Shown piece by piece: positions 1,071-41,650 of a stretch of DNA of 42,026 nucleotides (position 1 is the first letter of the stretch; the number at the start of each line of letters is the position of its first letter). The notes beneath the pieces are model-generated. The model was not told the origin of the DNA and did no database searches. It was given only the letters and a program-made list of their open reading frames with translations. The DNA lies in the IMG/VR virus record IMGVR_UViG_2734482779_000005, positions 1 through 42,026 of that record, one strand, 5' to 3'. A program made the position numbers and the translations under genes. This DNA is from a virus. Lineage: Duplodnaviria; Heunggongvirae; Uroviricota; Caudoviricetes.

Positions 1071-1193
1071 ATGCACGGTAATTCTGAAATGCAAAAAATC
1101 AACCAAACCAGCGCAATGCCTGAAAAAACTGACGTTCACTGGAGTGGTCGGTTTAGCGTTGCACCAATGCTCGATAGGATGTACCGTTGTTGA
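1071..1193 (+). pseudogene. dusA: Displaced 5' fragment of dusA (attL side); 40 codons then stop
   Basis: atgcacggtaattctgaaatgcaaaaaatcaaccaaaccagc...atgcctgaaaaaactg...cggtttagc...atgctcga aligns at roughly 80% identity with the start of the intact dusA at 40613; the frame terminates at tga 1191-1193. Confidence 0.75.
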
Positions 1194-1318
1194 AAAACAA
1201 GCAGTTATACACTCTGTGGGAGCCTATTGGGAACCCGGCGTTTTCATTTCAAGGTGTAATCCATACGCGGCTTAAGAATGAGATATAATGCGACTTTTAG
1301 TGTTCCGCTTGAGAGGCC

Positions 1319-1855
1319 ATGATGCTTACCCTGGACGAGATAGGTCAATCAGTACGTAACAATATCCAGTTGATTATTGATCATGTCGGCTTACCTCTTG
1401 CTGTTGGTCCGCTCAGTGATGATGATTACAAGATTCTGTGTGGTGGCTATGGTGAGCTTGAATGGGACTATGCGTTAAGTACCTATGGCAACTCCAGAGA
1501 AAAGTATGAGTTCTGCATAAAACTTGTTCAGCAAGGTCGGGTTCAGGGAATACCATCAGGAGCAGCAATTTGTGTTTATGGGGTTGAAGAAAACATCTTT
1601 CGTATCCATATGATCGAAAGGTTTTCTAGAGAAGATGAATCTCACCCATTGAAAGGGCGCATGGTTTTACTCACTCTTATGAGTGCTTTTATATTTTGTA
1701 AAGCTGTTGAATGTAAAGTTGTCCACATTGTAGAGCCAGTACCAGAACTGGTGCAGTATTACGAGTCTTTTGGTTTCCGCATGGAACAGTGCGGTTATGT
1801 GATGTCGGCAGTCATTGATGAGCTGCAGGATATCTTTCTTAAATTTGCTCAGTAG
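1319..1855 (+). CDS. Hypothetical protein (178 aa), cargo gene next to attL
   Basis: ORF track; first gene inside the left prophage end; no family recognised; appears more AT-rich than phage core genes. Confidence 0.45.
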   Translation: MMLTLDEIGQSVRNNIQLIIDHVGLPLAVGPLSDDDYKILCGGYGELEWDYALSTYGNSREKYEFCIKLVQQGRVQGIPSGAAICVYGVEENIFRIHMIERFSREDESHPLKGRMVLLTLMSAFIFCKAVECKVVHIVEPVPELVQYYESFGFRMEQCGYVMSAVIDELQDIFLKFAQ

Positions 1856-2051
1856 GTATAGACGAGAAGGGTCTACAAATTGTAGGATACCCGTCCAGAT
1901 TACCTTAAAGGTACATCTATGGCAGTCGTTTTGTGCTTAAACTACTAAGAAACGATGTCACCAATCGACATGATCGATTGGCATAAGTTAGCGAAACAAG
2001 CTAGCTTTAAAGAAAGGGTTAGAGACGCCTTTACTGTCTCGGGAGTTTTCT

Positions 2052-2225
2052 ATGAAAGATCAAAAAGCAACCAAGCCACAGGTTAAGTTCGACACAATGA
2101 AAGCATTCGCAGGTATGGGTGCTGCTGTTGAAGTTCTGATGAAGGCTGCTCCTAATGCGTTCACTCACGCTACTGTCTCTGGTAAAGAGCAGCAGGGTAA
2201 GCTTCGTCGTCGCAAAGCAGCATGA
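2052..2225 (+). CDS. Small hypothetical protein (57 aa; MKDQKATKPQVKFDTMKAFAGMGAAVEVLMKAAPNAFTHATVSGKEQQGKLRRRKAA)
   Basis: Hand-translated ORF below the track threshold; GGGAG Shine-Dalgarno at 2041-2045; immediately followed by a strong terminator. Confidence 0.3.
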   Translation: MKDQKATKPQVKFDTMKAFAGMGAAVEVLMKAAPNAFTHATVSGKEQQGKLRRRKAA

Positions 2226-2244
2226 TCATAGCTGGTGCTTTTTG

Positions 2245-2270
2245 AAAACCCGCCTTCAGGCGGGTTTTTT
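2245..2270. terminator. Bidirectional rho-independent terminator
   Basis: aaaacccgcc-ttca-ggcgggtttttt: GC-rich stem with A-run on one side and T-run on the other; sits between convergent genes. Confidence 0.7.
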
Positions 2271-2272
2271 CT

Positions 2273-2554
2273 TTAGTGATGTTCTTTGTCCTTCTGTTTG
2301 ACTGTTCTGACCTGTTCCCACTCGATACGTCCTTCTTCTCGCCTTTTGTCTATGTATTCCGCAAGATCTTGAATATTGATGCAACGTTTTGCTTTTTGTG
2401 ATGTGCCGATGCGATATGTTGGAACGGGCAACTTACAAGCGTTTGCTTTTGCTTCTGCCGTGGCTGGACTCATACCAAAGTACTTTTGGCTAACTGCTGA
2501 GAGTTCAATGTTTGGGGTATTGAATTCAGCCATCAGTAAAAACAAGGTGTTCAT
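2273..2554 (-). CDS. PrtN-like (pyocin-activator family) phage transcriptional regulator
   Basis: N-terminus MNTLFLLMAEF... resembles the PrtN family as I recall it; start chosen at the ATG preceded by GGAGA (track ORF extends to 2581 with a GTG). Confidence 0.45.
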   Translation of the reverse strand: MNTLFLLMAEFNTPNIELSAVSQKYFGMSPATAEAKANACKLPVPTYRIGTSQKAKRCINIQDLAEYIDKRREEGRIEWEQVRTVKQKDKEHH

Positions 2555-2590
2555 AATTTTCTCCATCAAAACCGGCTGCACCCGGGAAAA

Positions 2591-3166
2591 TCATAATTCT
2601 GTGCTGGTGGCAGGAATTAATTTCTGCCAGATAGCGGAAACATATTTTGCCTGATGACGGGCATCAGCCAGGGCGTTGTGCCGTTCGCCATCGAAAGGCA
2701 TGTCCATTTTGGGGTCGAATCCGATGGAACGCCCAAGCGTAACGATCGTGCGTACATCGTGGTCATTCCAGTACGCCCACGGGCAGATTTGTCCTGCTCG
2801 CTCGTAAGCTCCACGTAAAATTACGTTGTCGAAGGTGGCCCCGTTACCCCAGACTTTTAAATATTTTATATTGTCTGCATGCTGATTAATGAAATGACTC
2901 AATTCAGAGAGTGCATCGCTGATCGATAAAGTATCATCAATACAGATTGCAGCTCGTGCTTCAGGGCTCTGTTTCAACCACCACAGGATGGTATCGCCGT
3001 CAGGTGTAGCTCCTTGCTTCATAGCACTGTCCAGGCTGACAACCGCATAGAATTCTTGTCCGATGTCACCGGTTTCTGGGGTAAAGAACACCGCGCCAAT
3101 GGAAACGATCGGTGCATCCTTATTTTTCCCCATCGTCTCAAGGTCGATCATTAAGTTGTTCATCAC
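2591..3166 (-). CDS. DEDD-type 3'-5' exonuclease (DnaQ-like, phage)
   Basis: MIDLETMG (Exo I motif) and HNALADA (Exo III motif) in a 191-aa protein. Confidence 0.7.
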   Translation of the reverse strand: MMNNLMIDLETMGKNKDAPIVSIGAVFFTPETGDIGQEFYAVVSLDSAMKQGATPDGDTILWWLKQSPEARAAICIDDTLSISDALSELSHFINQHADNIKYLKVWGNGATFDNVILRGAYERAGQICPWAYWNDHDVRTIVTLGRSIGFDPKMDMPFDGERHNALADARHQAKYVSAIWQKLIPATSTEL

Positions 3167-4104
3167 TTCACCTCTTGTGATGGTTTTGCTGCAAAATACT
3201 CGATACCTTTATCCCAGATAGATTTTATGGTCGTCCACGTGACTGGTACTTTAATTTCAATTCGTCCGCTCCCGTCACAGGTATCGCAATCATCATCGCC
3301 AAAGCATTCCGGGCAGCTTATAAACGTAGTTTCTGAAAATTCACCGGATAGCACACCCTTAGCGCCGTTCTCAGCGGTTAGTTTCTTCGGCACTATAACC
3401 CAACCATCCGGAGTTACCGGAGAGTTGCCATTTATATCGAAGTTTGGCTCTGCGTCCTGAACCAGGAGGATGTAACCATTCTTGGCAGTATCAAGTTCTA
3501 ACGCCTCGGTGACGGTGCCGAAATAGCGATTACCTAAATCAGCATCACAAGTGCTTACATCAATGGAAACTTCCATGCCTTCGATTAATTCTGGCAAGTT
3601 GTAAGTTTGGCTTACAGGTTGGCTACCCTGAAGCATGGCAGCGTGGCAGGCTTCATCAACCATAGCTTCTACGTTTTCGAGAAGTACGTAACTGTACTGC
3701 TGCCCACTAACCCATTCTTTTCTGCGAGGTAATGCGCGTGGGTCCGCTACAATGGTTCGCAAACGTTCCAGAACAGCAGGCACTACCGGCTCTACTGCCA
3801 ACTGACTGGCATATTTGTTAATGGTAACGATAAGCTCTTGCTCGGCCTCATCCAGACAATCACCGATACCTCGCCTGTCACCGTCAAAATCATCGAAATC
3901 GGCACGAATCCTGGCAACCTCCCGGATTGCGGACAACACTTCACCAGGAATAAGCGGAGAGTTGCCCGATAGTGCATTTTGCTCCAGTGATGCCAGTGCA
4001 ATCCGTGCCAGCTCACGAATCTCACCGCCGTCTATATCGTCAATGTCATCACGGCCAGAAATGTTAGCCAGCCATTGCAGTCGCTCTTTGGTAATAGTGG
4101 TCAT
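3163..4104 (-). CDS. Hypothetical phage protein with C-terminal CxxC...CxxCxGxG zinc-ribbon
   Basis: 313-aa ORF; C-terminal CPECFGDDDCDTCDGSGRI resembles a DnaJ-type zinc finger; translationally coupled (atga overlap) to the exonuclease gene. Confidence 0.45.
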   Translation of the reverse strand: MTTITKERLQWLANISGRDDIDDIDGGEIRELARIALASLEQNALSGNSPLIPGEVLSAIREVARIRADFDDFDGDRRGIGDCLDEAEQELIVTINKYASQLAVEPVVPAVLERLRTIVADPRALPRRKEWVSGQQYSYVLLENVEAMVDEACHAAMLQGSQPVSQTYNLPELIEGMEVSIDVSTCDADLGNRYFGTVTEALELDTAKNGYILLVQDAEPNFDINGNSPVTPDGWVIVPKKLTAENGAKGVLSGEFSETTFISCPECFGDDDCDTCDGSGRIEIKVPVTWTTIKSIWDKGIEYFAAKPSQEVK

Positions 4105-4114
4105 GTGTTACTCC

Positions 4115-4378
4115 TTAACCCGCTGTGCTTTCAACTGACGAGGGGAACAAAATCTTTTCTTCAAATCCGGCATTCATATCATGGACAGCAACACACCAAT
4201 CCATTGACGAACGATTATCAAGAGCCTCCATGATTTCATCCATGCGGCATAGGTCATACAGGTAAATGTTTTTATCGCCAATGGTGTAAAAACCAATTTT
4301 TTTCGGTGACGGGCAGCGATCAAGAACGTTCTGTAATTCGCTCAACCATGCCTGTTCCTTTTTTGTCAAAGTTGCCAT
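4115..4378 (-). CDS. Hypothetical phage protein
   Basis: ORF track; start moved to the internal Met (MATLTKKEQ...) that abuts the upstream gene stop. Confidence 0.35.
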   Translation of the reverse strand: MATLTKKEQAWLSELQNVLDRCPSPKKIGFYTIGDKNIYLYDLCRMDEIMEALDNRSSMDWCVAVHDMNAGFEEKILFPSSVESTAG

Positions 4379-4379
4379 A

Positions 4380-4787
4380 TCACTCTCCTTTGATGCGAAT
4401 GCCAGTAGCGCGGATTGCATCGATGACTTCAGAAACTTTGTATGCCATTACCGTTTGGTAATCATCGTGAAAATCTGTTCGATGAAGCATGCTGCTACGT
4501 TCCGGGAGCAGTATTTCCCGCTCCTCCAGTTCTGCTATGCGCTTTTTTGCTGCTTCCAGTTCATCCAGTAATTCCAGCACGGTAGCCGGATTAGCCTTGG
4601 CAACAAAATCCCGGACTGGCTTACAATCAATCTCCGCAATGGGTTGATACGATGTGTAGCCATGCTGTCTTGTATAACTACCGTGACGAATAACGAAAAA
4701 ATCACCATTTATTTTTTTAGCCTGCCACTTATCTTCACCGGCTTTCTCTGCCGCCTCACGCAGTGCCTGATAGTCAATCTTGCTCAC
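4380..4787 (-). CDS. Ead/Ea22-like family protein
   Basis: N-terminus MSKIDYQALREAAEKA... is characteristic of enterobacterial prophage Ead/Ea22-like proteins (recollection); coiled-coil-like middle. Confidence 0.5.
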   Translation of the reverse strand: MSKIDYQALREAAEKAGEDKWQAKKINGDFFVIRHGSYTRQHGYTSYQPIAEIDCKPVRDFVAKANPATVLELLDELEAAKKRIAELEEREILLPERSSMLHRTDFHDDYQTVMAYKVSEVIDAIRATGIRIKGE

Positions 4788-5296
4788 TGGTCGCCTCCTT
4801 TGCGAAGCTGGGCGGCGAACTCGTTAAGTGATATGTAGCAATCTCCAAATGTTAACGAACCGCTCGACTGCATATGCTCCATAGCCATCTCCACGCCATG
4901 CGCCCGGACTTCAGTCAGGAAAGCATCGGTGGCAGGCATATTTCCTGTTGCCTTCATGGCCTCCAAAATAACCAGAACGCCATCTCTCCCAACCACCTCA
5001 GCGATAACCTCGGTGTTGTCGCCAACAACATCGCAGAATGCCTGAACTGCCTTACGAGCCAGCTCATTCTCCGCCGCAAGCGCCGAAAACTTCTCGTGTG
5101 TCAACTTTACAGCTGCATCAGCCTGCTTAATTGACTCAATCGCTCTCTGCTGGTCTTCGGACAGAGCCGAAATCTTGGCCTCCGCTTCAGCAAATTTACG
5201 CACCAGATATTCAGCATCCGTTTCATTCACTTTCAGATCTCGCGGTACACATTTCCCGCGAAGAAATCCTTCCATTTCGAAAACATTCATGCGCAT
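4784..5296 (-). CDS. Hypothetical phage protein (coiled-coil, early-left operon)
   Basis: 170-aa ORF overlapping its neighbours by 4 nt; no confident family. Confidence 0.4.
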   Translation of the reverse strand: MRMNVFEMEGFLRGKCVPRDLKVNETDAEYLVRKFAEAEAKISALSEDQQRAIESIKQADAAVKLTHEKFSALAAENELARKAVQAFCDVVGDNTEVIAEVVGRDGVLVILEAMKATGNMPATDAFLTEVRAHGVEMAMEHMQSSGSLTFGDCYISLNEFAAQLRKGGDQ

Positions 5297-5823
5297 TTGC
5301 GTAACTCCGATAATTCGTTAAAGCGTTCCATAAACATCCCGTAGGCATGGCCTGGAGCCAGTGGAATCACGTTGAACATCTCTGTTGCCGGGATACCTTC
5401 CAGTACAGGCCAGAAAGAGCCATCATCAAGCCCGAGATCGCGGCGTTCGGTTGCCAGCATGATGAGATCGGCATATTTCACAGGCGTGCTCATAACCTGG
5501 GGTAACCCGTATTTCTCACGGATTACGGCATCTATTTTTTCTTCCATCCGTTTATAGTCAGGAAGAAGGCGTTTCAGTGGAGCGGGGATGTCCTGGCAAT
5601 ATGCTTCTGTTGCATCATGCATTAACGCTTCAAAAGCAAATTCCTGCGGTACCAGCTGGCTGCAAAGCACCGCATGCTGGGCGACGCTGTAGAAGTGTGA
5701 AAGATGTCCTGCAAAGCGACAGATATTTGAAAGGGAAACTGCGATATCGTTAATCACGATGTCGTCTTTATTTATCTTGTCATAATAAAAATGCTTCCCG
5801 GAAAAAGTTTTAATAAATGACAT
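5287..5823 (-). CDS. yfdR: HD-domain 5'-deoxynucleotidase, YfdR-like
   Basis: HD-domain His/Asp motifs (HLSHFYSVAQHAV ... HDATEAY); 178 aa from MSFIKTF..., matching the CPS-53 prophage YfdR size and N-terminus as I recall. Confidence 0.65.
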   Translation of the reverse strand: MSFIKTFSGKHFYYDKINKDDIVINDIAVSLSNICRFAGHLSHFYSVAQHAVLCSQLVPQEFAFEALMHDATEAYCQDIPAPLKRLLPDYKRMEEKIDAVIREKYGLPQVMSTPVKYADLIMLATERRDLGLDDGSFWPVLEGIPATEMFNVIPLAPGHAYGMFMERFNELSELRKCA

Positions 5824-5951
5824 TTCGTTCTCCACTTTATATGCGCTGCACCGCGCTGAATTCTGCTAAAAGGAAGCTCTCACCATCCGGTGATTATTGA
5901 GTTAATTACGTTTCCATAAATGCCCCCGCAGGGGCATTTGCAGTAATGAAA

Positions 5952-6776
5952 TCAGGCGGTGAAAGTACCAATAAAGGTTTCTACTTTGCTGTCTTTGAAT
6001 TTCTCAACAAGCAGATCACGAAATTCGTTAGCCATTTCTTCCTGCATCGCTTCCAGCTGAATAATGCGCAGAACCAGTACAGGACGATCGCCAGTGATAA
6101 TGCTGAGGCGTAATTTAAACGGACGTTCTTTCAGACCTTCAAACGGAACGCATTTAAATTCAAATGCCACTGGCATAATGTCTTTGGTCTTCGCTTCGAC
6201 AGACTCCATCAGGGAGCGTTTGCCGCTGAAGTCATTATCTTCAAAATCAGCGGTCTGGTTTGCTTCAATCGTGATTTTACGGACAGCCGCAGCCGCTTTT
6301 GTTGCCTGAATAGCGTCACCATTAGCATCAAAGCCTACAAGGTAGTCGGCCCAGTCTTCAATCCATTCTGCCAGTGACTTCTGGGAGTTACGCTCGCCGT
6401 TAACAGACAACAGAGCAGAGAACGGTGCTGTCTTTTTCAGTTTGAGAGTGGCGGTGTTATCTGCGTGACCTGGTTCATCAATAGTACCCAGGTTAAGCAC
6501 ACTGACGGCACGCATATTATCAGCATCGATAAAGCAGCGGGTGCCTTCATCTGCAAGATCTTTAGAATAACGGGTAAAATCATCGATGCTGGCAGTGGAA
6601 AGCGCGCCACGGAAACGGAAGCGATTTAAATTAAATTTTTCCAGATCATGAATGCGGAAATTCTCAGGCAATGCCACAGCATCGGCACCAATCTTACTGA
6701 TAATTTCATTAACACCCTGAGCAGAAATAAGGGCATGGATTTGATTAATTGCGGTTGCGTCTAAGTTCTGAGACAT
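5952..6776 (-). CDS. yfdQ: YfdQ-like prophage protein (274 aa)
   Basis: Size and position next to yfdR-like and yfdP-like genes match the CPS-53 yfdPQR arrangement (recollection). Confidence 0.5.
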
Positions 6777-6841
6777 AATAAGTCCTCACTATATAAAGAT
6801 ATTCAGTGATGAGATAAATAATCAGTTTATTACGAACGATA

Positions 6842-7204
6842 TTAACGACCTGCTGCGCGGAGTTTTCCGTCAGGTTCACCGGCAAGAGTCAGTAATTGTC
6901 CCTGGTCTTCCTGCAGAATAGTCAGGCGACCACCGCGATTGACATACATCGGCGTTTCGGTGGTGTCTTCTTCGGAAATTTTCCCGCGGTTAGTTGGGCG
7001 AACATATGAGAGTTTGTGTTTGATTTTCACACTGTTCTCATCAAACGGTTCGATTTCCAGATTGAGTGAGACCTTCCCTTTGGTTTTCGTGTTCATCACA
7101 CCGGAAGCGACCTCACTGAGAACTGCGCCGATTTTGGTTTCAAATACGCCGCCGTCCAGCTCCCCGATAAATGCCTGCACATCAGTACTGCGTTCGCTAG
7201 CCAT
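6842..7204 (-). CDS. yfdP: YfdP-like prophage protein (about 120 aa)
   Basis: Track ORF runs to 7390, but the ATG at 7204 is preceded by GAGGAG and gives the expected ~120-aa product starting MASERSTDV. Confidence 0.45.
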   Translation of the reverse strand: MASERSTDVQAFIGELDGGVFETKIGAVLSEVASGVMNTKTKGKVSLNLEIEPFDENSVKIKHKLSYVRPTNRGKISEEDTTETPMYVNRGGRLTILQEDQGQLLTLAGEPDGKLRAAGR

Positions 7205-7252
7205 TTTGCTGCTCCTCATCATATCGACCCTGCAAGGTCGGTTGGTTTCTCC

Positions 7253-7341
7253 ACAAAACAGAGAAGAACACCTGCGGTGGCAGCCGCCCGGATGGATTGG
7301 GTTATGAGCCCGTCGTCCGGTGATGTTCTTCTCTGTTTTGT
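7253..7341. repeat. Long inverted repeat (18-bp perfect arms acaaaacagagaagaaca / tgttcttctctgttttgt, 46-nt loop) in a noncoding leader
   Basis: Read directly: arms at 7253-7270 and 7324-7341, extended by cc/gg with a 3-nt bulge. Confidence 0.6.
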
Positions 7342-7852
7342 AAAAAGAGCGGTACCAGCCGGAAGCAAGTGTACAAACTGGTACCGCCAAAGCAGTGGCT
7401 GTTGTGGTGACCGGTGCTGATCTCCGGCTTGCGGTTATTTCAGACTCTCACGGGCGTTTAATTGCCCCGCCGAACAGCTCTTTTCCGCAATAGCTGCAAT
7501 GTCTTTCGCGCATCAGCCTGCGCCTTCACCACAACGCTGAGAGCACTTAGCCAGTTACGGCACCACACTTTGTCGCGGCTCCATAAATGCCCTCATCGTT
7601 GCACCCTGGTCTCTTCCCAGGCGTCAAACCGGATCGCCACGCTGGTTAGGCGTCTTATCAGCATCATCATTGGCTTGCACATTCCGGCTACCTGGTTTGT
7701 TTGCCCGAGCAAGGAGTGGATTGTCCCCTTTAACGTCCCCAGACCGCTAACGACGCATGTGCCATACGCCGTGTTACAACCAAATTTTGTTTAATCTTGC
7801 CTGTGACATGTTTCTTTTAGATACATTATGTATCTCAAGGGTACATTGTCAA

Positions 7853-7878
7853 GTATAAAAAAACCTGCCGAAGCAGGT
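7853..7878 (-). terminator. Rho-independent terminator downstream of the repressor gene
   Basis: Minus-strand hairpin acctgc-ttcg-gcaggt followed by a U-run (plus-strand aaaaaaa at 7857-7863). Confidence 0.6.
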
Positions 7879-7890
7879 TATAAATATTGA

Positions 7891-8565
7891 TTAGGCCTTT
7901 ATTTTGTATCTTCTTGGTTTTCCTGAGAAAATTACTGTACCAATTATAGAGCAATTACCGTTGATCTTAATGTAAGGTTCAGGCCAGTTTGGGTTTAATG
8001 CTTTGAGGTAACGCTGTGTTCCATCTTCTATCAACCGCTTAAAGGTGGTTTCGCCTGTATCGTGCATCAATGCAATAACGTCGTCACCGTGGCAGGCAGG
8101 GACTTCAGGATCTACAAAAATCATGTCTCCCGGGCGGTACTCATCAATCATTGAATCACCAATCACCCGCAAGATATAAGTCATTTCGCCACAGGGTACA
8201 GGGCAGGGATAAGTTTCTGCTGTGCTCAAATCAACCTCAGAATAGCCAACTTCTTTCCATGCTCCGGCCTGTACCCATGATATGACAGGGACTAACGTTA
8301 TTTGTTTGTTAGTAATTGAAACATCAGGTTTTTTTGTGATGTTTGTTGTCTGGTGTTCTTGATCAAGCCATCCGACAGGCAGGTCGAAACATTTTTCGAT
8401 GTGCCGTGCCATGCTGTCACCGATATTTTTAGTAGCACCATCTCCCATAAACCTGCTGGTCTGGGTTGGCTCGCGATCAATCATGGTGGCAAAGGAAGAA
8501 TTCCCGCCAACACCATCTCTCAGTTTTCTGGCGTTAGACCGCCGGATGTCATGGACTGTTTTCAT
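7891..8565 (-). CDS. cI: CI-like prophage repressor (HTH N-domain plus S24/LexA-like autoproteolytic C-domain)
   Basis: 224 aa; C-terminal region (…LRVIGDSMIDEY…GDMIFVDPEVPACHGDDVIAL…) has the Ser/Lys peptidase S24 architecture; divergent from a Cro-like gene across an operator-bearing intergenic region. Confidence 0.8.
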   Translation of the reverse strand: MKTVHDIRRSNARKLRDGVGGNSSFATMIDREPTQTSRFMGDGATKNIGDSMARHIEKCFDLPVGWLDQEHQTTNITKKPDVSITNKQITLVPVISWVQAGAWKEVGYSEVDLSTAETYPCPVPCGEMTYILRVIGDSMIDEYRPGDMIFVDPEVPACHGDDVIALMHDTGETTFKRLIEDGTQRYLKALNPNWPEPYIKINGNCSIIGTVIFSGKPRRYKIKA

Positions 8566-8581
8566 AACGAAATTAAAACCT

Positions 8582-8600
8582 TTGTACCGATAGGGTACAA
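8582..8600. promoter_or_regulatory. Candidate OR operator: perfect 19-bp palindrome TTGTACCGATAGGGTACAA
   Basis: Read directly in the 90-bp cI/cro divergent intergenic region; further partial palindromes (tacatattgta) lie next to the cro-like start. Confidence 0.55.
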
Positions 8601-8655
8601 GTATCTTGAGGGTTCATCTTAATCATGTAATATGTATATCGGAGGTACATATTGT

Positions 8656-8856
8656 ATGAAAGCGTATTGGGACTCTTTAACCAAAGAACAGCAGGGCGAG
8701 TTGGCCGGAAAAGTTGGCTCAACACCAGGCTACTTACGGCTGGTTTTCAATGGTTATAAAAAAGCCAGTTTTGTGCTGGCTAAAAAACTTGAGCAATGCA
8801 CGTCAGGTGCAATTACGAAATCTGACTTAAGACCGGATATCTATCCGAAAGATTAA
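8656..8856 (+). CDS. Cro/YdaS-like small HTH regulator
   Basis: 66 aa from the ATG at 8656 with GGAGG 10 nt upstream; divergent from cI; …SLTKEQQGELAGKVGSTPGYL… is HTH-like. Confidence 0.6.
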   Translation: MKAYWDSLTKEQQGELAGKVGSTPGYLRLVFNGYKKASFVLAKKLEQCTSGAITKSDLRPDIYPKD

Positions 8857-8887
8857 CAGAACACCTTCAATTTTTAACCACAGAACG

Positions 8888-9451
8888 ATGAGGCTAACCG
8901 TGGGTAAGCATCACTGGAAAGTAGAAAAACAGCCTGAGTGGTACGTGAAAGCTGTCAGAAAAACTATCGCGGCGTTGCCGGGGGGTTACGCTGAAGCTGC
9001 TGAGTGGCTGGATGTAACAGAGAACGCTTTATTCAACCGCCTTCGTGCAGATGGCGATCAGATTTTCCCGCTGGGATGGGCAATGATTTTACAGCGCGCG
9101 GCTGGCACTCACTACATTGCGGATGCTGTCGCACAGTCTGCTGGTGGGGTGTTTGTATCGCTTCCTGAAATTGAGGAAGTAGAGAACGCCGATATAAACC
9201 AGCGCCTGCTGGAAGTCATCGAACAGATCGGGAGTTACTCAAAGCAGATTCGTTCGGCAATCGAAGATGGGGTAGTGGAGCCACACGAGCAGACAGCAAT
9301 TAATGATGAGTTGTATCTGTCAATTTCGAAGCTCCAGGAGCATGCAGCACTGGTCTACAAAATCTTTTGCGCTCCAGAAAAGAGTGACGCCCGCGAGTGT
9401 GCAGCTCCGGGCGTCGTGGCGTTTTGTGTCTGTGGAGAAACTAACGCATGA
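8888..9451 (+). CDS. Putative early regulatory protein (CII/YdaT-like position)
   Basis: 187-aa ORF immediately after the cro-like gene; family assignment not secure. Confidence 0.35.
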   Translation: MRLTVGKHHWKVEKQPEWYVKAVRKTIAALPGGYAEAAEWLDVTENALFNRLRADGDQIFPLGWAMILQRAAGTHYIADAVAQSAGGVFVSLPEIEEVENADINQRLLEVIEQIGSYSKQIRSAIEDGVVEPHEQTAINDELYLSISKLQEHAALVYKIFCAPEKSDARECAAPGVVAFCVCGETNA

Positions 9452-10284
9452 ACAGTTTAACGGCAAATAACCGTTTGTCGCAACAGCTGGTGGTCAGCGA
9501 CGCTGACCACCTGTTGTTACGGCATGAATGCAGATTACCAAATCACCTGGCTGTAAGTAACCACAGAGAACTTTACCTGACTGTGGGGGGCGAGTTGTGC
9601 AGGAACTTAACCGCTGGTTTCGTGACGGAAGAGGACTTTATGTTCATGTTATTCGTTGGGAGCCAGAAACACAGCGCGTTATCTATCTTCGCAAAGACTA
9701 CCCGCATGAGTGCTTTAGTCCTTTGTGGAAATTCAGGCGTGATTTTGTTGAGTGTGAAGGACCACCAGCACATTGATTCTGCCATTCCGGGACGTTACAC
9801 TGTTCAGGCACCTTATAAAGCGGGTGCCGGGATTGGCGTCCTGGAAATGTTATCGGCGATATATGACGCGCCAGCGTCTTTTTTATCGTCTGCGTCTGTG
9901 CACACCCAAATTATGGTGGGCTGGACGGGGGCACCGAAAGGTGCGCCGGTTTCCGATAACGCCGGTTACGCCAACCCCGTTCAGTTCACCACCAGCGAAA
10001 TTGGCGTTTCCGGTGGTGAAGGTAATTCACTGTTATCGGAGGCTGCCATCATGGCTACTGTCCCAGCCCTCACTCGTCTGAATGATGAAGACTTACATAA
10101 ACTCAGTTATGTAACAACTGCACTACGTGCTCTGCGCAAGGTAACTCTTTCGGATCCGCAGGCGCATCAGGTTTTGGTAGAAACCCTTCTTAACTTGCAG
10201 GCTGAACGTATTCGTCTGGCGGATAAGGCTAATTTTCATATTCACCGTCTCCTGAATATCAGCGGAGGGCATCGTCATGCTTAA
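9448..10284 (+). CDS. Hypothetical ORF (278 aa), coding status uncertain
   Basis: Longest ORF in the interval, but the N-terminal half is low-complexity and an alternative frame (GTG 9597 to tga 9776) gives a more protein-like 59-aa product; see findings. Confidence 0.25.
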   Translation: MNSLTANNRLSQQLVVSDADHLLLRHECRLPNHLAVSNHRELYLTVGGELCRNLTAGFVTEEDFMFMLFVGSQKHSALSIFAKTTRMSALVLCGNSGVILLSVKDHQHIDSAIPGRYTVQAPYKAGAGIGVLEMLSAIYDAPASFLSSASVHTQIMVGWTGAPKGAPVSDNAGYANPVQFTTSEIGVSGGEGNSLLSEAAIMATVPALTRLNDEDLHKLSYVTTALRALRKVTLSDPQAHQVLVETLLNLQAERIRLADKANFHIHRLLNISGGHRHA

Positions 10285-10513
10285 TCCGTTGATCCTCAAC
10301 ATTTACCGTTTATTTCAGCGTAAAAAAACATCAATTCCTACAGTTGGGCAGTGGTACACCACGCCTGCAGGGCATGTTCTACGTGTTAGCCTGGTTGACC
10401 GTGAATGTCAGAAGGTGATTTGTGAACCGCTGGGCCGTAATTACCGCGTCAGTATGCCGCTTATAGCCTTTCGCTCCGGAAAAAACATGAAGCATCTCGG
10501 AGGTGCAGCATGA
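10277..10513 (+). CDS. Small hypothetical protein (78 aa)
   Basis: ORF track; overlaps the neighbours by 4 to 8 nt in operon fashion. Confidence 0.35.
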   Translation: MLNPLILNIYRLFQRKKTSIPTVGQWYTTPAGHVLRVSLVDRECQKVICEPLGRNYRVSMPLIAFRSGKNMKHLGGAA

Positions 10514-11328
10514 GTATGGAGCTGATGGTTAAAGCGATGAAAATTCGAGTGGGTAATCCATTGCGAAAACTGGTTCTGATCAAGCTGGCTGATAATGCCA
10601 GCGATCAGGGTGAGTGCTGGCCCAGCTACCAGCATATTGCTGACCAGTGCGAGATTAGCAAACGTTCTGTGATGAATCATATTGCGGCCCTTTGTGAGTC
10701 CGGGCTGGTAAAAAAAGTCACCCGGAAAGGTGAAAAAGGTAACTCAAGTAATATCTATCTCCTTCATCTGGATGGTGCAGGAGATTCACCAGGGGGTAGT
10801 GCAAATAATTCACTATCTGGTGCAGCAAATTCACCAGGTAGTGCAGGAGTTGCACCAGGGGGTAGTGCAGGAGATTCACCCAGAACCAGTCACTCTTTTG
10901 AACCAGTCAAAGAACCAGTCAATGAACCAATAGCTGTTGGTGCATCTGCTGATGAGTCTGTGCGAGTTCGTTCAAACCGACCGGAATACTCTCCGGAGTT
11001 TGAGCAGGCATGGCTGGCATATCCCAAACGTGCTGGTGGCAATTCAAAATCTGCAGCCTTCAAAGCCTGGAAAGCCCGTTTGAATGAGGGGGTAAACCCC
11101 GAAACCATGCTGGAAGGTGTGAAACGCTATGCGGGCTGGGTATCTGCGATGGGTAACAGCGGCACACAATTTGTGAAACAGGCTGTCACGTTCTTTGGTC
11201 CGGATCGTCATTTCGAAGAATCCTGGGAAGTTCCTGCGGTATCTGCAGCCAGACGTGAGGACCCGTACTTCAAAGCCAGTTACGACAACGTGGACTACAG
11301 CCAGATCCCGGCAGGATTCAGGGGGTGA
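10510..11328 (+). CDS. Replication initiator (lambda O-like) with N-terminal HTH and internal iteron-encoded linker
   Basis: N-terminal …LRKLVLIKLADNASDQGECWPSYQHIADQCEISKRSVMNHIAALCESGLV… HTH; origin-like direct repeats lie within the gene, as in lambda O. Confidence 0.6.
   Translation: MSMELMVKAMKIRVGNPLRKLVLIKLADNASDQGECWPSYQHIADQCEISKRSVMNHIAALCESGLVKKVTRKGEKGNSSNIYLLHLDGAGDSPGGSANNSLSGAANSPGSAGVAPGGSAGDSPRTSHSFEPVKEPVNEPIAVGASADESVRVRSNRPEYSPEFEQAWLAYPKRAGGNSKSAAFKAWKARLNEGVNPETMLEGVKRYAGWVSAMGNSGTQFVKQAVTFFGPDRHFEESWEVPAVSAARREDPYFKASYDNVDYSQIPAGFRG
10775..10930. repeat. Candidate replication origin: five iterons (gtgcaggagattcacc family, spaced about 22 bp) followed by three copies of gaaccagtca
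   Basis: Direct repeats at 10775-10790, 10797-10812 (variant), 10820-10835, 10841-10856 and 10865-10880; gaaccagtca-type repeats at about 10884-10925. Confidence 0.6.
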
Positions 11329-11819
11329 TCATGAGTCTTTTGAATGAAGTTCAGAAATTCATTGAAGCCCATCCGGGGTGTACTTCCGGAGACATTGCGG
11401 ATGCTTTTGCAGGTTACTCACGGCAGCGCGTTCTGCAGTCAGCAAGCAAGTTACGTCAGAGTGGGCGTGTGGCTCACCGTTGTGAAGGAGATACACGCAG
11501 ACATTTCCCACGCCTGACTGAGAGAGCGCAGGAGCCGGAACCACAACCAGTTCGTGAAACCAAACCTGTGCGCAATTTCTATGTCGGCACTAACGATCCC
11601 CGGGTGATTTTGTGCCTGACCCGCCAGGCTGAAGAGCTGGAGTCCAGGGGGTTATACCGTCGTGCTGCAACGGTGTGGATGGCGGCATTCCGAGAAAGCC
11701 ACTCCCAGCCAGAACGAAACAATTTTCTGGCACGTCGTGAGCGGTGCTTACGGAAAAGCAGCAAGCGCGCTGCATCGGGTGAAGAGTGGTATCTGTCAGG
11801 GAATTACGTGGGGGCTTAA
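11325..11819 (+). CDS. Hypothetical regulator-like protein (possible winged-helix N-terminus; C-terminus reminiscent of the PerC family)
   Basis: 164 aa; …GLYRRAATVWMAAFRESHSQPERNNFLARRERCLRK… resembles the PerC-type motif as I recall; unverified. Confidence 0.3.
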   Translation: MIMSLLNEVQKFIEAHPGCTSGDIADAFAGYSRQRVLQSASKLRQSGRVAHRCEGDTRRHFPRLTERAQEPEPQPVRETKPVRNFYVGTNDPRVILCLTRQAEELESRGLYRRAATVWMAAFRESHSQPERNNFLARRERCLRKSSKRAASGEEWYLSGNYVGA

Positions 11820-13181: not shown

Positions 13182-13200
13182 TTAAGAGGAGAAACGAAGT

Positions 13201-36200: not shown

Positions 36201-36848
36201 ATGCATCGTATAGACACGAAAACCGCGCAGAAGGATAAGTTCGGCGCGGGTAAGAACGGTTTTACCCGTGGTAACCCCCAGACCGGCACGCCTGCCACCG
36301 ATCTGGATGATGACTACTTTGACATGTTGCAGGAGGAGCTTTGCAGCGTTGTGGAGGCATCCGGTGCCAGCCTGGAGAAGGGGCGGCATGACCAGCTGCT
36401 TACCGCGCTTCGTGCGCTGCTGTTAAGCCGCAAGAATCCGTTTGGCGATATCAAATCGGATGGCACGGTGAAAACAGCTCTCGAAAACCTTGGTTTGGGA
36501 GAAGCGGCGAAAAGGGATGTGGGCACAGGAGATAATCAGATACCGGATATGGGAGCATTCGCTTCTGGTTCGGGATGGTTCAGGCTACCAGGTGGATATA
36601 TTGTTCAGTTTGGCACTTTTTCAGGAAACACGACCCGCTTTATCAGTGGACACTTCCCTATACCATTCCCTAATCAACCGCTTGTTTCAGTCAGTGTCAT
36701 GTCTGATGCCGTTCAGTCAGAACCGTCGAATCCTGCACCGCTGGTTTTATCTGTAAATTTTGAACATATCAGTAATTCAGCGTGGCGTGTGGCAATCAGT
36801 GATATCTCTCAACAATACAGATTCAGTTATATTTCGATAGGACGGTAG
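36201..36848 (+). CDS. Tail fibre protein with invertible C-terminal receptor-binding region (current orientation)
   Basis: 215 aa; the crossover site lies at codons ~97-101 (…NLGLGE…), so the C-terminal ~115 aa belong to the invertible segment. Confidence 0.65.
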
Positions 36849-36850
36849 AA

Positions 36851-37291
36851 ATGCAGAAATATATTTTCAGTGCTGATAAAAATGCGTTTTTCCCTGTGGA
36901 GCTTAAAATTGCTTATCAGGAAGCGGGGAAATGGCCTGATGATGGAATCGAAATTGACGACACTGTTGCCGCCGAATTTATGAAGGAAGCACCAGAAGGA
37001 AAATACAGAGGTGTCATCGACGGAATGCCAGCATGGATTGATATTCCACCGCCAACTCATGAGGAACAAATTGCCGCAGCCGAACTGGAAAAGCAGCAAT
37101 TGATTAATCAGGTCAACGAATACATAAACAGTAAGCAATGGCCTGGTAAAGCGGCGATTGGTCGCCTGAAAGGTGAGGAACTGGCGCAATATAATTTGTG
37201 GCTGGATTACCTGGACGCACTGGAACTGGTCGATACTTCCGGTGCGCCAGATATTGAATGGCCTACGCCTCCGGCAGTTCAGGCCAGATGA
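36851..37291 (+). CDS. Tail fibre assembly protein (Tfa, current orientation)
   Basis: 146 aa; MQKYIFSADKNAFFP… and C-terminal …WPTPP… are typical of Tfa chaperones. Confidence 0.7.
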   Translation: MQKYIFSADKNAFFPVELKIAYQEAGKWPDDGIEIDDTVAAEFMKEAPEGKYRGVIDGMPAWIDIPPPTHEEQIAAAELEKQQLINQVNEYINSKQWPGKAAIGRLKGEELAQYNLWLDYLDALELVDTSGAPDIEWPTPPAVQAR

Positions 37292-37865
37292 CATCCGGCG
37301 CGGTGCTGGTATCTGTTGCCGTCACCGCGTCAATGTAATCCAGCACAGCGTTAAGTCGGGTGGTTTCTGCCTGCGTCAGCTTCCGCCCGGCCTGCAATTT
37401 CAGTTGAATCAGACTGATGGAAGCCATTGCAGTATCAATCAGTGACTGACGCTGTGCTTCTGCCGCGTCTACTGCGGCGCAATGCTGTGCCTCAGTATCG
37501 GTCACCCATTTCTCACCATCCCATTTATCGAATGGCGTTAACGGGGCGATAGTGGTTGTATTTTCAGGGTAATCACCCGGAGCTGTGATTTCTTTTGATT
37601 CTCCTGTTTCAGTGCTATATACCGTTTCACCACGGTGGTCTGGCACATATACCCATGAGTTAAAATCTGCAGAACGGCAGATTACATAACCAGCTTTATA
37701 TGAGTCAGGAGCATCTAAACAGGAGCATGCCGGAATGCCGACACCCACAGCAAGATATTCAGTTGATGTGAAAATATATTCCCGTGTTTCACCATCATAG
37801 TTATATACGGTGATTTCTCCGTTGTTTATTGCGTAGCCGTCTTTCCCCAAAATAGCTTGTTCCAT
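37263..37865 (-). CDS. Alternative tail fibre assembly protein (Tfa', inverted orientation)
   Basis: 200 aa on the opposite strand within the invertible segment; C-terminus …VIWPELPEA is Tfa-like. Confidence 0.65.
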   Translation of the reverse strand: MEQAILGKDGYAINNGEITVYNYDGETREYIFTSTEYLAVGVGIPACSCLDAPDSYKAGYVICRSADFNSWVYVPDHRGETVYSTETGESKEITAPGDYPENTTTIAPLTPFDKWDGEKWVTDTEAQHCAAVDAAEAQRQSLIDTAMASISLIQLKLQAGRKLTQAETTRLNAVLDYIDAVTATDTSTAPDVIWPELPEA

Positions 37866-38333
37866 TTATGCAGTCCTCACAATGTAGTTAAATGCAATGT
37901 TGCGCGGGCGAGATTCATCACCACCGCTTGGCATCGATGTCAGCCCTGATGACGAACCAGTCCATCCATTGGCTGGACGGTTCATAAATCCTTCACCCGA
38001 TGTGTAATATTTCTTCGCGTAGATAGATGTTGTTCCTGGCACGCCACCAGCAGTTCCCCCGACTGCGCCAACGTCATCATGAACGTGCGACAAGTTTTGA
38101 CTGTTTTGATGTGAAAGCAGTGCGCGCCCACTATCGGCACCGCGCCCATCATCCCAGCCACGAATAAACTCACCACGTAAATCAGGCAATTTATTTGTCG
38201 GGTAAGCCTTTGCCAGTTCCGGGTATTCTTCAGGAGAAAAAGCCGCACCATTGCATTTCAGCCAGCCTGTTGGCGGAGTGGCTGAAGGCCACGGAACAGG
38301 CACACCAACGGGTAATGCCGAACCTTCTCCCAA
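37866..38333 (-). CDS. Alternative tail fibre C-terminal segment (promoterless, silent in this orientation)
   Basis: Reading frame continues open into the right crossover site; …PVGVPVPWPSATPPTGWLKCNGAAFSPEEYPELAKAY…LPDLRGEFIRGW… resembles the Mu/P1 fibre variable-domain pattern. Confidence 0.6.
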   Translation of the reverse strand: MGEGSALPVGVPVPWPSATPPTGWLKCNGAAFSPEEYPELAKAYPTNKLPDLRGEFIRGWDDGRGADSGRALLSHQNSQNLSHVHDDVGAVGGTAGGVPGTTSIYAKKYYTSGEGFMNRPANGWTGSSSGLTSMPSGGDESRPRNIAFNYIVRTA

Positions 38334-38409
38334 ACCAACCTTTCAAATATTTTTCTGAATCAGGTGATATTTCGCCTCTTCTCCTGTTTTTACAACAGGA
38401 GAAGCACTC

Positions 38410-38973
38410 ATGATTTACGGGTATGTTCGTGTATCAACAAATCATCAGGATACAGAGTTGCAACGTCTTGCACTTGAGTCAGCTGGCTGTGAGCGAATTT
38501 ATGAAGAATATGCCAGTGGCAGAACAGCTAATCGCCCTGTGTTAAAGGAATTAATTTCGGTGATGAAAAGTGGAGATGAGTTGATTGTCTGGAAGCTAGA
38601 TCGGATAGGGAGAAATGTGCTACATGCGCTATTGATGTTTCAAAATCTGCACGAAAAAGGCGTTAATTTTCGGAGTATTACAGATGGTGTAGACCTGAAA
38701 ACAGCAAGTGGTCGCTATAATTTCCGTAATATTCTTTCTGCTGCGCAGTATGAATCTGATTTGAATAGCGAGCGAACTTTAGCTGGTTTGGCTATTGCCA
38801 GATCCAAAGGCCGGATTGGTGGGCGTAGACCGAAGTTTAGCGACGAGCAGTGGCAACAGATGGGAGCGCTCATAGCGGCAGGGAAATCACGGCGTTATGT
38901 TGCACGTATCTATAACGTTGGGCTATCAACCCTATATAAACGATTTCCTGTTACTGGCATTCAAACGAAATAA
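38410..38973 (+). CDS. pin: Serine DNA invertase (Pin/Gin/Hin/Cin family)
   Basis: 187 aa; N-terminal MIYGYVRVSTNHQDTELQ with catalytic-serine context and C-terminal HTH; adjacent to the invertible segment. Confidence 0.85.
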   Translation: MIYGYVRVSTNHQDTELQRLALESAGCERIYEEYASGRTANRPVLKELISVMKSGDELIVWKLDRIGRNVLHALLMFQNLHEKGVNFRSITDGVDLKTASGRYNFRNILSAAQYESDLNSERTLAGLAIARSKGRIGGRRPKFSDEQWQQMGALIAAGKSRRYVARIYNVGLSTLYKRFPVTGIQTK

Positions 38974-38997: not shown

Positions 38998-39040
38998 TTG
39001 TCTAATGTTGGAAGCCGCAGCCACGTCGTATGCAAGAACG
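38998..39040. other. Long stem-loop (agccgcagccacg … cgtgctgcggct) between convergent pin and dinI-like genes; no U-tract
   Basis: Read directly; coordinates approximate; ~12-bp stem with one bulge. Confidence 0.35.
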
Positions 39041-39116
39041 TGCTGCGGCTGGCTGGCGAACTTTCGATAGTGCGAGTATTGAATGATTTCCAGCCGTTAC
39101 CGATTTTACGTGTTAA

Positions 39117-39365
39117 TTAGTGAACAAACCACTCGTCAGCAGATTCCCAGGTATCTTTCAGAGTCTCCTGAACAAAAGTTTTTGCAGAATCCTTATCTGC
39201 GGTGCGTGTAACAGAAAGGCCATCGTTGCTGGTGGCTTTTACGATCACCTCTACATCGTCATAACGTTTACTGATGCGTCGGGTTAATTCTTCCTTTAAC
39301 GCATCCACAGCACCGGTTGGCATTTTAGTCATTTTTTCTTTGGCTATGCAGATTTCAATACGCAT
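39117..39365 (-). CDS. dinI: DinI-like DNA-damage-inducible protein
   Basis: 82 aa; MRIEICIAK…[11 protein letters not shown] parallels E. coli DinI (MRIEVTIAK…TWESADDWFV). Confidence 0.8.
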
Positions 39366-39380
39366 AAAAGTCCCTCTATA

Positions 39381-39424
39381 CTGTGTTTGTATACAGTATT
39401 ATTTTTAACTGTATGGATAAACAG
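39381..39424. promoter_or_regulatory. Two LexA (SOS) boxes upstream of the dinI-like gene
   Basis: CTGTgtttgtatACAG (39381-39396) and CTGTatggataaACAG (39409-39424), both matching CTGT-N8-ACAG. Confidence 0.65.
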
Positions 39425-39426
39425 TG

Positions 39427-40524
39427 TCAAGAGGTCTTATTTCTGCTCCTTTGGAGCTCTTCAAAACGATTATGTAAAGATTTCGGATACAGTTCGGTAT
39501 ATACCTGCCATAGCACGTTTAATGAACGATGCCCTGTGACCTGGGCGACTTCCTCAATACTAAAACCAGCCTCAAATAAGCGACTTGCCCCTTCTCTACG
39601 CAAATCATGGTATCGCAGATCCTTAATACCTAATTTGCTTCTTACCCTCTGAAATCCCGCAGTAACAGAAGTGCTGTTATATGGAAAAATGAATTCCGAT
39701 TTTTTGGGCTGTCGTTGGACGATATCCCAGGCTTCCCCAAGCAAGGCTACTTTCATGTGGTTGCCTTCCTTTTTGCGTGGATCTTTCCTGTCTCTTACGA
39801 GTATAGATTTTTGTTCCTGGTCGAGATCTTCCCATCGTAACCGGCATACTTCTCCGATCCGCATACAGGACCACACAGAAAATTTGAGGATATCAACGAA
39901 CGGAATTTTTGAGCATTTATGAGTAGATCGTTGTTGAAGGCCTTCAATGAGCATGTCCAGTTCATCAGATGCTGGTCTACGATTACGACGGTTTGATTTA
40001 CCAATCAAACCAAGTTTAAGTAGATATGGGCGAGCGCTTTTCGCCGGGTTTGATGTGTAATTAATTCCGTATACAGGTTTGGCCGCATCCAGAACACTGC
40101 CAAGATAACTAACATCGTGGCTGACTGTTGCTGGACCTGCACCAGCGTTGTTTCTTAGCCTGCAATGTTCAATTACGTCATTTTCTGTCAGTTCAGATAG
40201 TTTGATCGCGGAGATGTCACTATCCATAAGCAGTTCCAGCACATATCTTTTAGTACGGCCTGCTTTACCTCCGGCATTTGGGTCATTTAAATATTTGTGT
40301 AGTAAGTCACGGACTGTAAGTCCGTCAACTGCATTTGATGATGGAATGCCATATAGATCTAATTCCATCACTTTCTGTGTTCCCCATGTTTTGGCATGAG
40401 CATGTTTAGGGAATGTTTTGCTTTCCCTGTAAGTGATAACACCTTTTTCTTTGATAATCACATTACAGCGATAGCGTGGTGTGCCATCGGATTTTAGTCG
40501 TTTCTCTATGTTATAGTACGCCAT
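39427..40524 (-). CDS. int: Tyrosine integrase (dusA-specific class)
   Basis: 365 aa; C-terminal catalytic region …HDLRREGASRLFEAGFSIEEVAQVTGHRSLNVLWQVY… (R/H/R/Y signature); divergent from and adjacent to dusA. Confidence 0.85.
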   Translation of the reverse strand: MAYYNIEKRLKSDGTPRYRCNVIIKEKGVITYRESKTFPKHAHAKTWGTQKVMELDLYGIPSSNAVDGLTVRDLLHKYLNDPNAGGKAGRTKRYVLELLMDSDISAIKLSELTENDVIEHCRLRNNAGAGPATVSHDVSYLGSVLDAAKPVYGINYTSNPAKSARPYLLKLGLIGKSNRRNRRPASDELDMLIEGLQQRSTHKCSKIPFVDILKFSVWSCMRIGEVCRLRWEDLDQEQKSILVRDRKDPRKKEGNHMKVALLGEAWDIVQRQPKKSEFIFPYNSTSVTAGFQRVRSKLGIKDLRYHDLRREGASRLFEAGFSIEEVAQVTGHRSLNVLWQVYTELYPKSLHNRFEELQRSRNKTS

Positions 40525-40612
40525 TACACGACCTCGTTATTTCGGGTTCCCATAAAACGTGGGAACCTGTGCGGGAACCTAACGCGAGAAAAATAGCCTG
40601 AAATGTTCAAAA

Positions 40613-41650
40613 ATGCACGATAATCATGAAACACAAAAAATTAATCAAACCAGCGTGATGCCTGAAAAAACTGGTGTTTACTGGAATTCTCGGTTTAGCA
40701 TTGCTCCTATGCTCGACTGGACGGACAGACATTGCCGCTATTTCTTGCGTCTGCTTTCCCGCAGTACGTTGCTTTATACCGAAATGGTGACCACAGGGGC
40801 GATTATTCACGGTAAAGGTGATTATCTGGCGTACAGTGAAGAAGAACATCCGGTAGCGTTGCAACTAGGCGGTAGCGATCCGGCGGCGCTGGCGCAGTGT
40901 GCAAAGCTGGCAGAAGCGCGCGGATATGATGAGATCAACCTGAATGTCGGCTGCCCGTCTGACCGGGTGCAGAACGGCATGTTTGGTGCGTGTCTGATGG
41001 GTAATGCGCAGCTGGTTGCCGACTGCGTGAAAGCGATGCGCGATGTGGTGTCGATTCCGGTGACGGTGAAAACGCGTATTGGCATCGACGACCAGGACAG
41101 CTATGAATTTCTCTGCGATTTCATCAATACCGTTTCCGGCAAAGGCGAGTGTGAGATGTTCATCATCCACGCACGTAAAGCCTGGCTTTCGGGGTTAAGC
41201 CCGAAAGAAAACCGTGAAATCCCGCCGCTCGATTATCCGCGTGTGTATCAACTGAAGCGTGACTTTCCGCATCTGACAATGTCGATTAACGGTGGTATCA
41301 AGTCGCTGGAAGAGGCCAAAGCACACCTGCAACATATGGATGGCGTGATGGTCGGGCGCGAGGCGTATCAGAATCCGGGTATTCTGGCGGCGGTAGACCG
41401 GGAGATCTTTGGTTCCTCGGATACCGATGCCGATCCGGTGGCGGTAGTGCGCGCCATGTATCCGTACATTGAGCGTGAACTCAGCCAGGGGACGTATCTC
41501 GGCCATATTACCCGGCATATGCTGGGTTTGTTCCAGGGTATTCCTGGCGCGCGGCAGTGGCGGCGTTATTTAAGTGAAAATGCCCATAAAGCGGGTGCTG
41601 ACATTAACGTGCTGGAACACGCGCTCAAACTGGTGGCGGATAAGCGTTAA
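40613..41650 (+). CDS. dusA: tRNA-dihydrouridine synthase A (5' end supplied by the prophage)
   Basis: 345 aa; …NLNVGCPS… and TIM-barrel Dus family features; a second divergent copy of its first ~40 codons lies at 1071-1193. Confidence 0.9.

Follow-up and report, generated by a model that had tools for sequence, protein, structure and literature searches.

The 42,026-nucleotide (nt) sequence analyzed here (IMG/VR virus record IMGVR_UViG_2734482779_000005, positions 1 to 42,026; hereafter the window) carries the 5′ end of dusA, a tRNA-modification gene of E. coli, twice, once near its left end as a short open reading frame (ORF) and once near its right end in front of an intact gene. How, then, did this gene come to have two beginnings with phage DNA between them? 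An initial annotation, made from the sequence alone, had read the arrangement as a prophage inserted by a dusA-specific integrase, in which the gene regains a 5′ end from the phage while that of the host is displaced. Our analysis upheld this claim. Taken as a whole, the arrangement is very probably explained by a dusA-specific integrase that inserted a 39,542-bp phage, such that the element replaces the dusA 5′ end; the prophage spans 1175-40716. This explanation holds because the empty-site alignment, the attP site of free phages, the near-identical integrase (Int) of Escherichia phage 1720a-02, and the family literature agree, and the locus belongs to the known dusA-specific integrase system.

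The two dusA 5′ copies form the largest direct repeat in the window, 1068-1184 versus 40610-40726, with 95 matches over 117 nt (81%). The chance expectation for such a repeat pair in a sequence of the window's size and composition is ~5e-28, and the identity of roughly 80% first estimated for the two copies was confirmed. Likewise as first described, the left copy (1071-1193) is translated into 40 codons followed by a stop (MHGNSEMQKINQTSAMPEKTDVHWSGRFSVAPMLDRMYRC*), and the right copy, starting at 40613, is in frame with an intact dusA (40613-41650, plus strand) that encodes a 345-residue DusA scoring 559.8 bits against the NCBIfam DusA equivalog (cut-off 269). The integrase gene (39427-40524, minus strand) indeed lies 88 bp from intact dusA in divergent orientation, the gap being 40525-40612. 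No tRNA genes were found in the window.

The initial annotation had proposed an alignment of both copies with an empty dusA locus. This alignment was run with the E. coli K-12 locus, and it placed the junction in ATGCTCGA. As the three-way comparison of attB, attL, and attR showed, the left copy equals K-12 through ATGCTCGA (1167-1174, plus strand) and is unrelated beyond it, while the right copy has 18 differences from K-12 before ATGCTCGA (40709-40716) and follows the K-12 sequence from 40709 onward. In the comparison with the empty site, the last phage-specific base lies directly 5′ of ATGCTCGA and the first directly 3′ of it. Because the sequence is that of the host up to ATGCTCGA on the left and from ATGCTCGA on the right, the exchange occurred within this 8-bp stretch. 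The left flank of the window matches thousands of E. coli genomes, and at unoccupied sites the match stops at window position 1174. Thus, attL (1071-1193, plus strand) consists of the displaced host dusA 5′ end (1071-1174) and phage sequence that closes the 40-codon ORF. At the other junction, the phage-supplied 5′ end (codons 1-35; 40613-40716, plus strand) ends in the core and is followed by the host-derived rest of the gene (40717-41650, plus strand) in register with K-12 dusA. Three identical stretches had been named as candidate cores for the crossover. All three exist, but only ATGCTCGA fits; ATGCCTGAAAAAACTG and CGGTTTAGC were ruled out, as each is separated from the junction by host-specific and phage-specific differences.

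We then rebuilt attP by joining the phage arms (40525-40716 plus 1175-1330), and the product was colinear with contiguous sequence in the free phages mEp460 (JQ182728) and SKA5 (OR670062). The SKA5 record annotates the 40-codon imitation ORF as 'tRNA-dihydrouridine'. Because attP is contiguous in free phage genomes, the right-hand dusA 5′ copy is, by this comparison, phage DNA. The joined arms read ...GC TCCTA TGCTCGA TAGGA TG..., a 7-bp spacer within a perfect 5-bp inverted repeat. A 7-bp spacer with a flanking inverted repeat is the usual layout of a tyrosine-recombinase core, and TGCTCGA (1168-1174 at attL), flanked in attP by TCCTA/TAGGA, is the likely overlap. The core ATGCTCGA encodes M33-L34-D35 of DusA. 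The P′ arm of attP (1175-1318, plus strand) carries TGGGAGCC (1217-1224) and TGGGAACC (1228-1235); in mEp460 and SKA5 it directly adjoins the int-side arm. The P arm, which is the phage-derived spacer between int and dusA (40525-40612), carries TGGGAACC at 40545-40552 (minus strand) and at 40560-40567, CGGGAACC at 40572-40579, and a conserved AAAAATA block.

The integrase is a 365-residue tyrosine recombinase that matches Pfam PF00589 Phage_integrase (E 1e-20), and motif inspection located its RHRH tetrad and nucleophilic Tyr at R222, H306, R309, H332, and Y342. It is identical to Int of 1720a-02 at 363 of 364 positions (99.7%); the first 193 nt of the 1720a-02 record, at its int-side end, match window 40525-40717 with zero mismatches. 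The integrase was therefore correctly recognized in the initial annotation, which overlooked two other parts of the integration module, namely an excisionase gene at 2273-2581 (minus strand) and the TGGGAACC motifs in both attP arms. The excisionase gene is located across attP from int, and its product belongs to the PrtN/RdfN family (Pfam PF11112, E 4e-23; PHROG 1300 'excisionase', E 8e-40). The exact 8-mer TGGGAACC has three copies in the window, at 1228 (plus), 40545 (minus), and 40560 (plus), and one-mismatch copies lie at 1217 and 40572; all five TGGGAACC-like copies are in the att arms only. In other species, one inverted and two direct copies are retained and the motif differs (GGGGTGCT, GGTGTAC, and others). 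Klebsiella phage Kp4886-1 similarly has its own motif at both record ends. This phage (Int 52% identical) has no dusA imitation beside int; it served for the repeat-motif comparison only. Repeats of the TGGGAACC type are likely arm-type integrase sites that co-evolve with the integrase.

From these parts the following course of events can be proposed. The tyrosine integrase would insert the phage by site-specific recombination at dusA codons 33-35. Beside int, attP carries a dusA 5′-end imitation of 104 nt, equipped with a start codon and with signals upstream of it; the imitation ends in ATGCTCGA. Strand exchange within the core would fuse this imitation in frame to the dusA body at attR, leaving the 345-residue DusA intact, and the host promoter with the first 35 codons would remain at attL as a 40-codon stub facing the left-end cargo genes. 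Excision would need Int together with the PrtN/RdfN-type excisionase and would restore native dusA; the predicted junctions of the excision products are GCTCCTATGCTCGATAGGATG for attP and GCACCAATGCTCGACTGGAC for attB.

This arrangement has well-described counterparts. Phage 1720a-02 inserts ~100 bp into dusA at a seven-base core, its attL and attR have been sequenced, and attP circles were regenerated in vivo (PMC6328086). The window shares with 1720a-02 (Phi-stx2dact, KF030445.1) the insertion ~100 bp into dusA, the TGCTCGA core, and a PrtN-family gene at the other end. However, 1720a-02 is a lambdoid Stx2-converting phage with other late genes and other left-end cargo, whereas the window phage lacks stx and its contractile tail is SfV/Mu-like. 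The dusA-associated or dusA-specific integrases (DAI) of Farrugia et al. 2015 lie beside the dusA 5′ end in >200 bacteria; semi-conserved repeats flank their elements, which contribute the new 5′ end together with beta-strand 1 (PMC4482086). The window shows the same divergent recombinase at the dusA 5′ end and the same semi-conserved repeats over the APM(L/M)DWTD codons. There is no difference in kind, except that we deal with an enterobacterial prophage and with an imitation of ~104 nt compared with the 21-bp consensus that defines the DAI att sites.

For IMEVchUSA3, which occupies the same E. coli site, Durand et al. reported that the first 35 residues of DusA are replaced and that an element-borne promoter keeps dusA expressed, with evidence for the promoter and the 35-residue N-terminus from a lacZ fusion in E. 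coli K-12 (PMC8409611). In the same work, RdfN (PrtN family), encoded across attP from int, was shown to be the excisionase, or recombination directionality factor (RDF), of dusA-specific elements (PMC8409611). The E. coli attB, the replacement of the first 35 residues, and the PrtN-family RDF all recur in the window. In contrast, RdfN elements are small mobilizable islands under IncC AcaCD, whereas the window carries the module on a complete SOS-type temperate phage, and the replacement N-terminus is 74% identical to the native one in the window but 61% in the IMEVchUSA3 type. The SXT integrative and conjugative element, at the 5′ end of prfC, differs from the window in integrase lineage, target gene, and element type.

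The junction is common in E. coli. With a 1474-nt probe for int joined to dusA via the phage-type 5′ end, and a match required over at least 80% of its length, we found it in 730 of 5426 complete E. coli genomes (~13%). When each species was represented by a single genome, 52 loci with relatives of int were retrieved, and dusA was divergent ~90 bp upstream in 34 of them. Relatives with 32-37% identity are found in the free phages Pseudomonas Haddon, Ralstonia YL2, and Burkholderia CSP3, which have a ...RF(S/C)xAPMMDWT... dusA imitation ~200 bp upstream of int. This family comparison covered the 1720a-02 Int and the phage relatives. Some int relatives that are 58-64% identical (loci L026-L035 and L048; Xenorhabdus, Serratia, and Pseudomonas) are not beside dusA. 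At most of these loci (L026-L028, L030, L031, L034, and L048), a distance of 100-200 bp separates int from the 5′ end of another, divergently oriented gene; we take these genes, from recognition of their N-terminal sequences, to be pgl, upp, and pyrD and genes for a DEAD-box helicase and an NlpC-like lipoprotein. These non-dusA relatives suggest that the integrase may have been retargeted with the same 5′-end replacement strategy.

The strongest competitor to the integrase-mediated insertion of an apparently intact phage is a fixed cryptic prophage, a relic architecture whose junctions no longer recombine. Decayed versions do occur at this locus elsewhere, as in E. coli 2014C-3011 (truncated integrase, IS66, and rearrangements), and E. 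coli 23CRST027 has several frameshifted tail genes. However, the major ORFs of the window are uninterrupted and 96-98% identical to those of isolated plaque-forming phages, and both att cores are intact; we regard a cryptic prophage as unlikely. Far less probable is RecA-dependent homologous recombination between the dusA-like segment of the phage and host dusA without the integrase. The partners share 104 nt at ~82%, including a 16-nt identical run, but the exchange fell in the 8-bp ATGCTCGA and not in the longest identical run, ATGCCTGAAAAAACTG. Furthermore, the same junction recurs in the 730 genomes and in lysogens made independently in the laboratory from C. rodentium and E. coli K-12 (PMC6328086, PMC8409611), and the attP site is framed by the TCCTA/TAGGA inverted repeat typical of tyrosine-recombinase cores. 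A local duplication or an assembly artefact unrelated to the phage, for which the bare existence of the repeat speaks and nothing more, is scarcely credible and was refuted by the empty-site alignment and the free-phage attP: the right-hand copy belongs to free phage genomes, empty sites (K-12 and other unoccupied E. coli loci) carry a single dusA 5′ copy, and, with 19 mismatches in 105 positions, the copies are not a recent duplication.

Some points do weigh against the dusA-specific insertion of an intact phage as set out above. A sigma-70 consensus scan of the 88-bp spacer (40525-40612) found no site on either strand. The position of the new dusA promoter, the activity of the chimeric DusA, and the excision of this copy are inferred. 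The intactness of the prophage was judged solely from uninterrupted ORFs and from 96-98% identity to isolated phages.

The result of the scan bears directly on the initial statement that dusA is transcribed from the prophage-derived sequence 40525-40612. The 39.5 kb upstream of dusA are all prophage and the neighboring gene is on the other strand, so dusA transcription must presumably start in prophage DNA, as suggested by this geometry and by the published lacZ result on a different element. To this extent the statement stands, and for the spacer itself the sigma-70 scan did not bear it out. A manual check of the −10/−35 spacing around the AAAAATA block did not find an acceptable −35 either. 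In a spacer alignment of 25 elements, the AAAAATA block is conserved ~18 nt upstream of the ATG in the conserved AAAATGCACGAAAAT start region. The promoters of int and dusA, which are divergent, presumably fall within 40525-40612, and the TGGGAACC repeats in the spacer overlap this presumed promoter region. Across the 25 copies that elements carry in many genera, the first ATG and its AAAATGCACG context are conserved, unlike the second in-frame ATG. On the host side, a consensus scan gave a candidate dusA promoter, TTGATA-17-GAAAAT (1044-1072, plus strand), which is split from dusA and faces into the prophage. Upstream of dusA, no other host promoter resembles the consensus; the −10 element of the candidate (GAAAAT) ends on the annotated start codon (ATG at 1071).

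The replacement also changes the protein. In the first 35 codons, 19 of 105 nt differ between host and phage, 18 of them within the 104 nt that end at the end of the core, and the DusA N-termini show nine amino-acid changes in 35 residues (26 identical, 74%). The T. thermophilus Dus structure aligns from residue 26 only; therefore, eight of the nine changes are in an N-terminal extension. Only V30I falls in the conserved RFSxAPMLD strand, which is part of the barrel, and the other differences there are synonymous, a pattern that would fit coding constraint on the dusA imitation.

The slot that separates the att core from the excisionase gene (1175-2270) proved to be a variable cargo position. 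In the window it holds a gene for a 178-residue GNAT-fold protein (1319-1855, plus strand; PHROG 4350, unknown function), oriented like the host dusA promoter, and a 57-residue ORF that travels with it (2052-2225, plus strand), 3′ of which is a terminator-like hairpin (2244-2269). The AlphaFold2 model of the 178-residue protein (pLDDT 92) gave Foldseek matches to GNAT proteins at E ~1e-6, with the AtaT/TacT/KacT toxins among many others. Neither 1319-1855 nor 2052-2225 matched Pfam, NCBIfam, or PADLOC, at set limits for the former, and a PDB sequence search of the former gave nothing significant. The GNAT and 57-residue pair is also inserted elsewhere in other prophages, at very different positions: in the tail module in Photorhabdus, after Q in Citrobacter, and also in Shewanella. 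In mEp460, the slot contains the same GNAT pair as in the window. The slot of E. coli 23CRST027 (L065 2992-4040) holds a Panacea-domain protein and a hypothetical protein, that of SKA5 (L005 19754-20955) three other ORFs, and that of 1720a-02 (L059 1591-2139) a 182-residue ORF. The four cargo sets (window, 23CRST027, SKA5, and 1720a-02) are all co-oriented with the displaced host dusA promoter, and a terminator scan predicted none before 2244. In the spacer between int and dusA, the repeat triplet is element-specific, being TGGGAACC in the window and GGGGTGCT or GGTGTAC in other elements. We tentatively propose a promoter swap, possible though doubtful, in which the displaced host dusA promoter would drive the left-end cargo in lysogens, and the repeat triplet in the spacer would represent Int arm sites that couple Int occupancy to int and dusA transcription. 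If true, it would be lysogens specifically that express the cargo, from a housekeeping promoter of the host.

The element as a whole is apparently an intact temperate phage, with a head and contractile tail of the SfV/SKA5 type and a lambdoid early region of the mEp460 type. Uninterrupted ORFs were found for int, rdfN, the repressor, Q, lysis, terminase, portal, capsid, sheath, tape-measure, baseplate, and fibre proteins. The left half matches mEp460 and related lambdoid early regions at 98% identity; the right half, with an HK97-type head and a Mu-like contractile tail, matches SKA5 and SfV at the same level. Among these phages, SKA5 shares tail, int, and attP with the window at 98.5% but has different cargo beside attP; mEp460 is 98% identical in attP and the early region but differs in its lambda-like side tail fibre region; and SfV (NC_003444) shares head and tail at 98% but has a different integration module.

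The lambdoid early and regulatory region (2591-17116), assigned with Pfam and Rfam, is 98% identical to mEp460 over 66% of its length. By Pfam and the mEp460 annotation, it includes exonuclease, replication, methylase, and RusA genes, and it also has a CI-type S24 repressor (7891-8565), a cro-like gene (8632-8856), and antiterminator Q (15010-15390). Rfam detected two RNAs above the gathering score at 9808-9996 (plus strand), isrK with 63.7 bits (9808-9884) and C4 antisense RNA with 82.8 bits (9909-9996). Both lie inside an early ORF (9448-10284) that aligned with antirepressor genes (Rha/ash-family) of mEp460 and 23CRST027, and the region resembles a P1/P7-type immI antirepressor control module within a lambdoid early region. 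Between Q and the holin gene is a DUF6731-related cassette (15426-16838, minus strand), a position that stx occupies in Shiga toxin (Stx) phages. The cassette encodes a 313-residue protein, distant relatives of which carry DUF6731 (PF20505), and a 153-residue protein rich in hydrophobic stretches; the stretch 15001-17000 is low in GC, at 38-43%. The ORFs 15426-15887, 15897-16838, and 16838-17116 had no match in Pfam, NCBIfam, or PADLOC at the set E-value limits, the MusI_fam match of 15426-15887 (E 0.003) being far below the cut-off. A PDB sequence search of 15897-16838 gave nothing significant.

The lysis, head, and Mu-like contractile-tail modules (17135-38973, plus strand) are 98% identical to SKA5 and SfV. 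They include a low-GC ORF of 170 residues at 30597-31109 (plus strand; 41% GC; PHROG 8976, unknown function), located between the tape-measure and DNA-circulation genes and also present in SKA5. The tail-fibre genes contain an invertible segment (36485-38343) bounded by 20-nt inverted repeats (36485-36504 and 38324-38343) that are 90% complementary and enclose alternative fibre-tip and assembly genes on opposite strands. A Gin/Pin-type serine invertase gene (38410-38973), whose product has Resolvase and HTH_7 domains, adjoins this segment. It is followed by a gene for a DinI-like protein (39117-39365, minus strand; Pfam PF06183), which precedes the integrase.

Host DNA flanks the prophage on both sides. 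The left flank (1-708, plus strand) is the 3′ part of yjbM, 99% identical to K-12 and other E. coli sequences annotated as DUF2713 protein; in E. coli, yjbM is the gene upstream of dusA. The right flank (41784-42026, plus strand) is pspG, by K-12 annotation and translation. At the same locus, E. coli 2014C-3011 shares attL and the GNAT cargo but has a decayed, rearranged composite region, with the truncated integrase, the IS66 element, the effector gene nleC, and a truncated pspG. This strain gave the best match to the left junction, but it was dropped as a whole-prophage reference because its element is different, decayed, and rearranged. As seen in 2014C-3011, the dusA site accumulates prophage wreckage.

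The arrangement described here is already known, experimentally characterized, and common in E. coli, and the window adds a well-preserved instance that leaves the known mechanism unchanged. Its main use is in annotation, since the prophage boundaries are now base-exact at 1175-40716. Annotation pipelines report a 105-nt 'partial tRNA-dihydrouridine synthase' pseudogene at attL; both this call and the slightly odd DusA N-terminus mark an occupied site, not gene decay. With ~13% of complete E. coli genomes sharing the junction, dusA is among the commoner prophage sites in the species, and Stx phages use dusA too.

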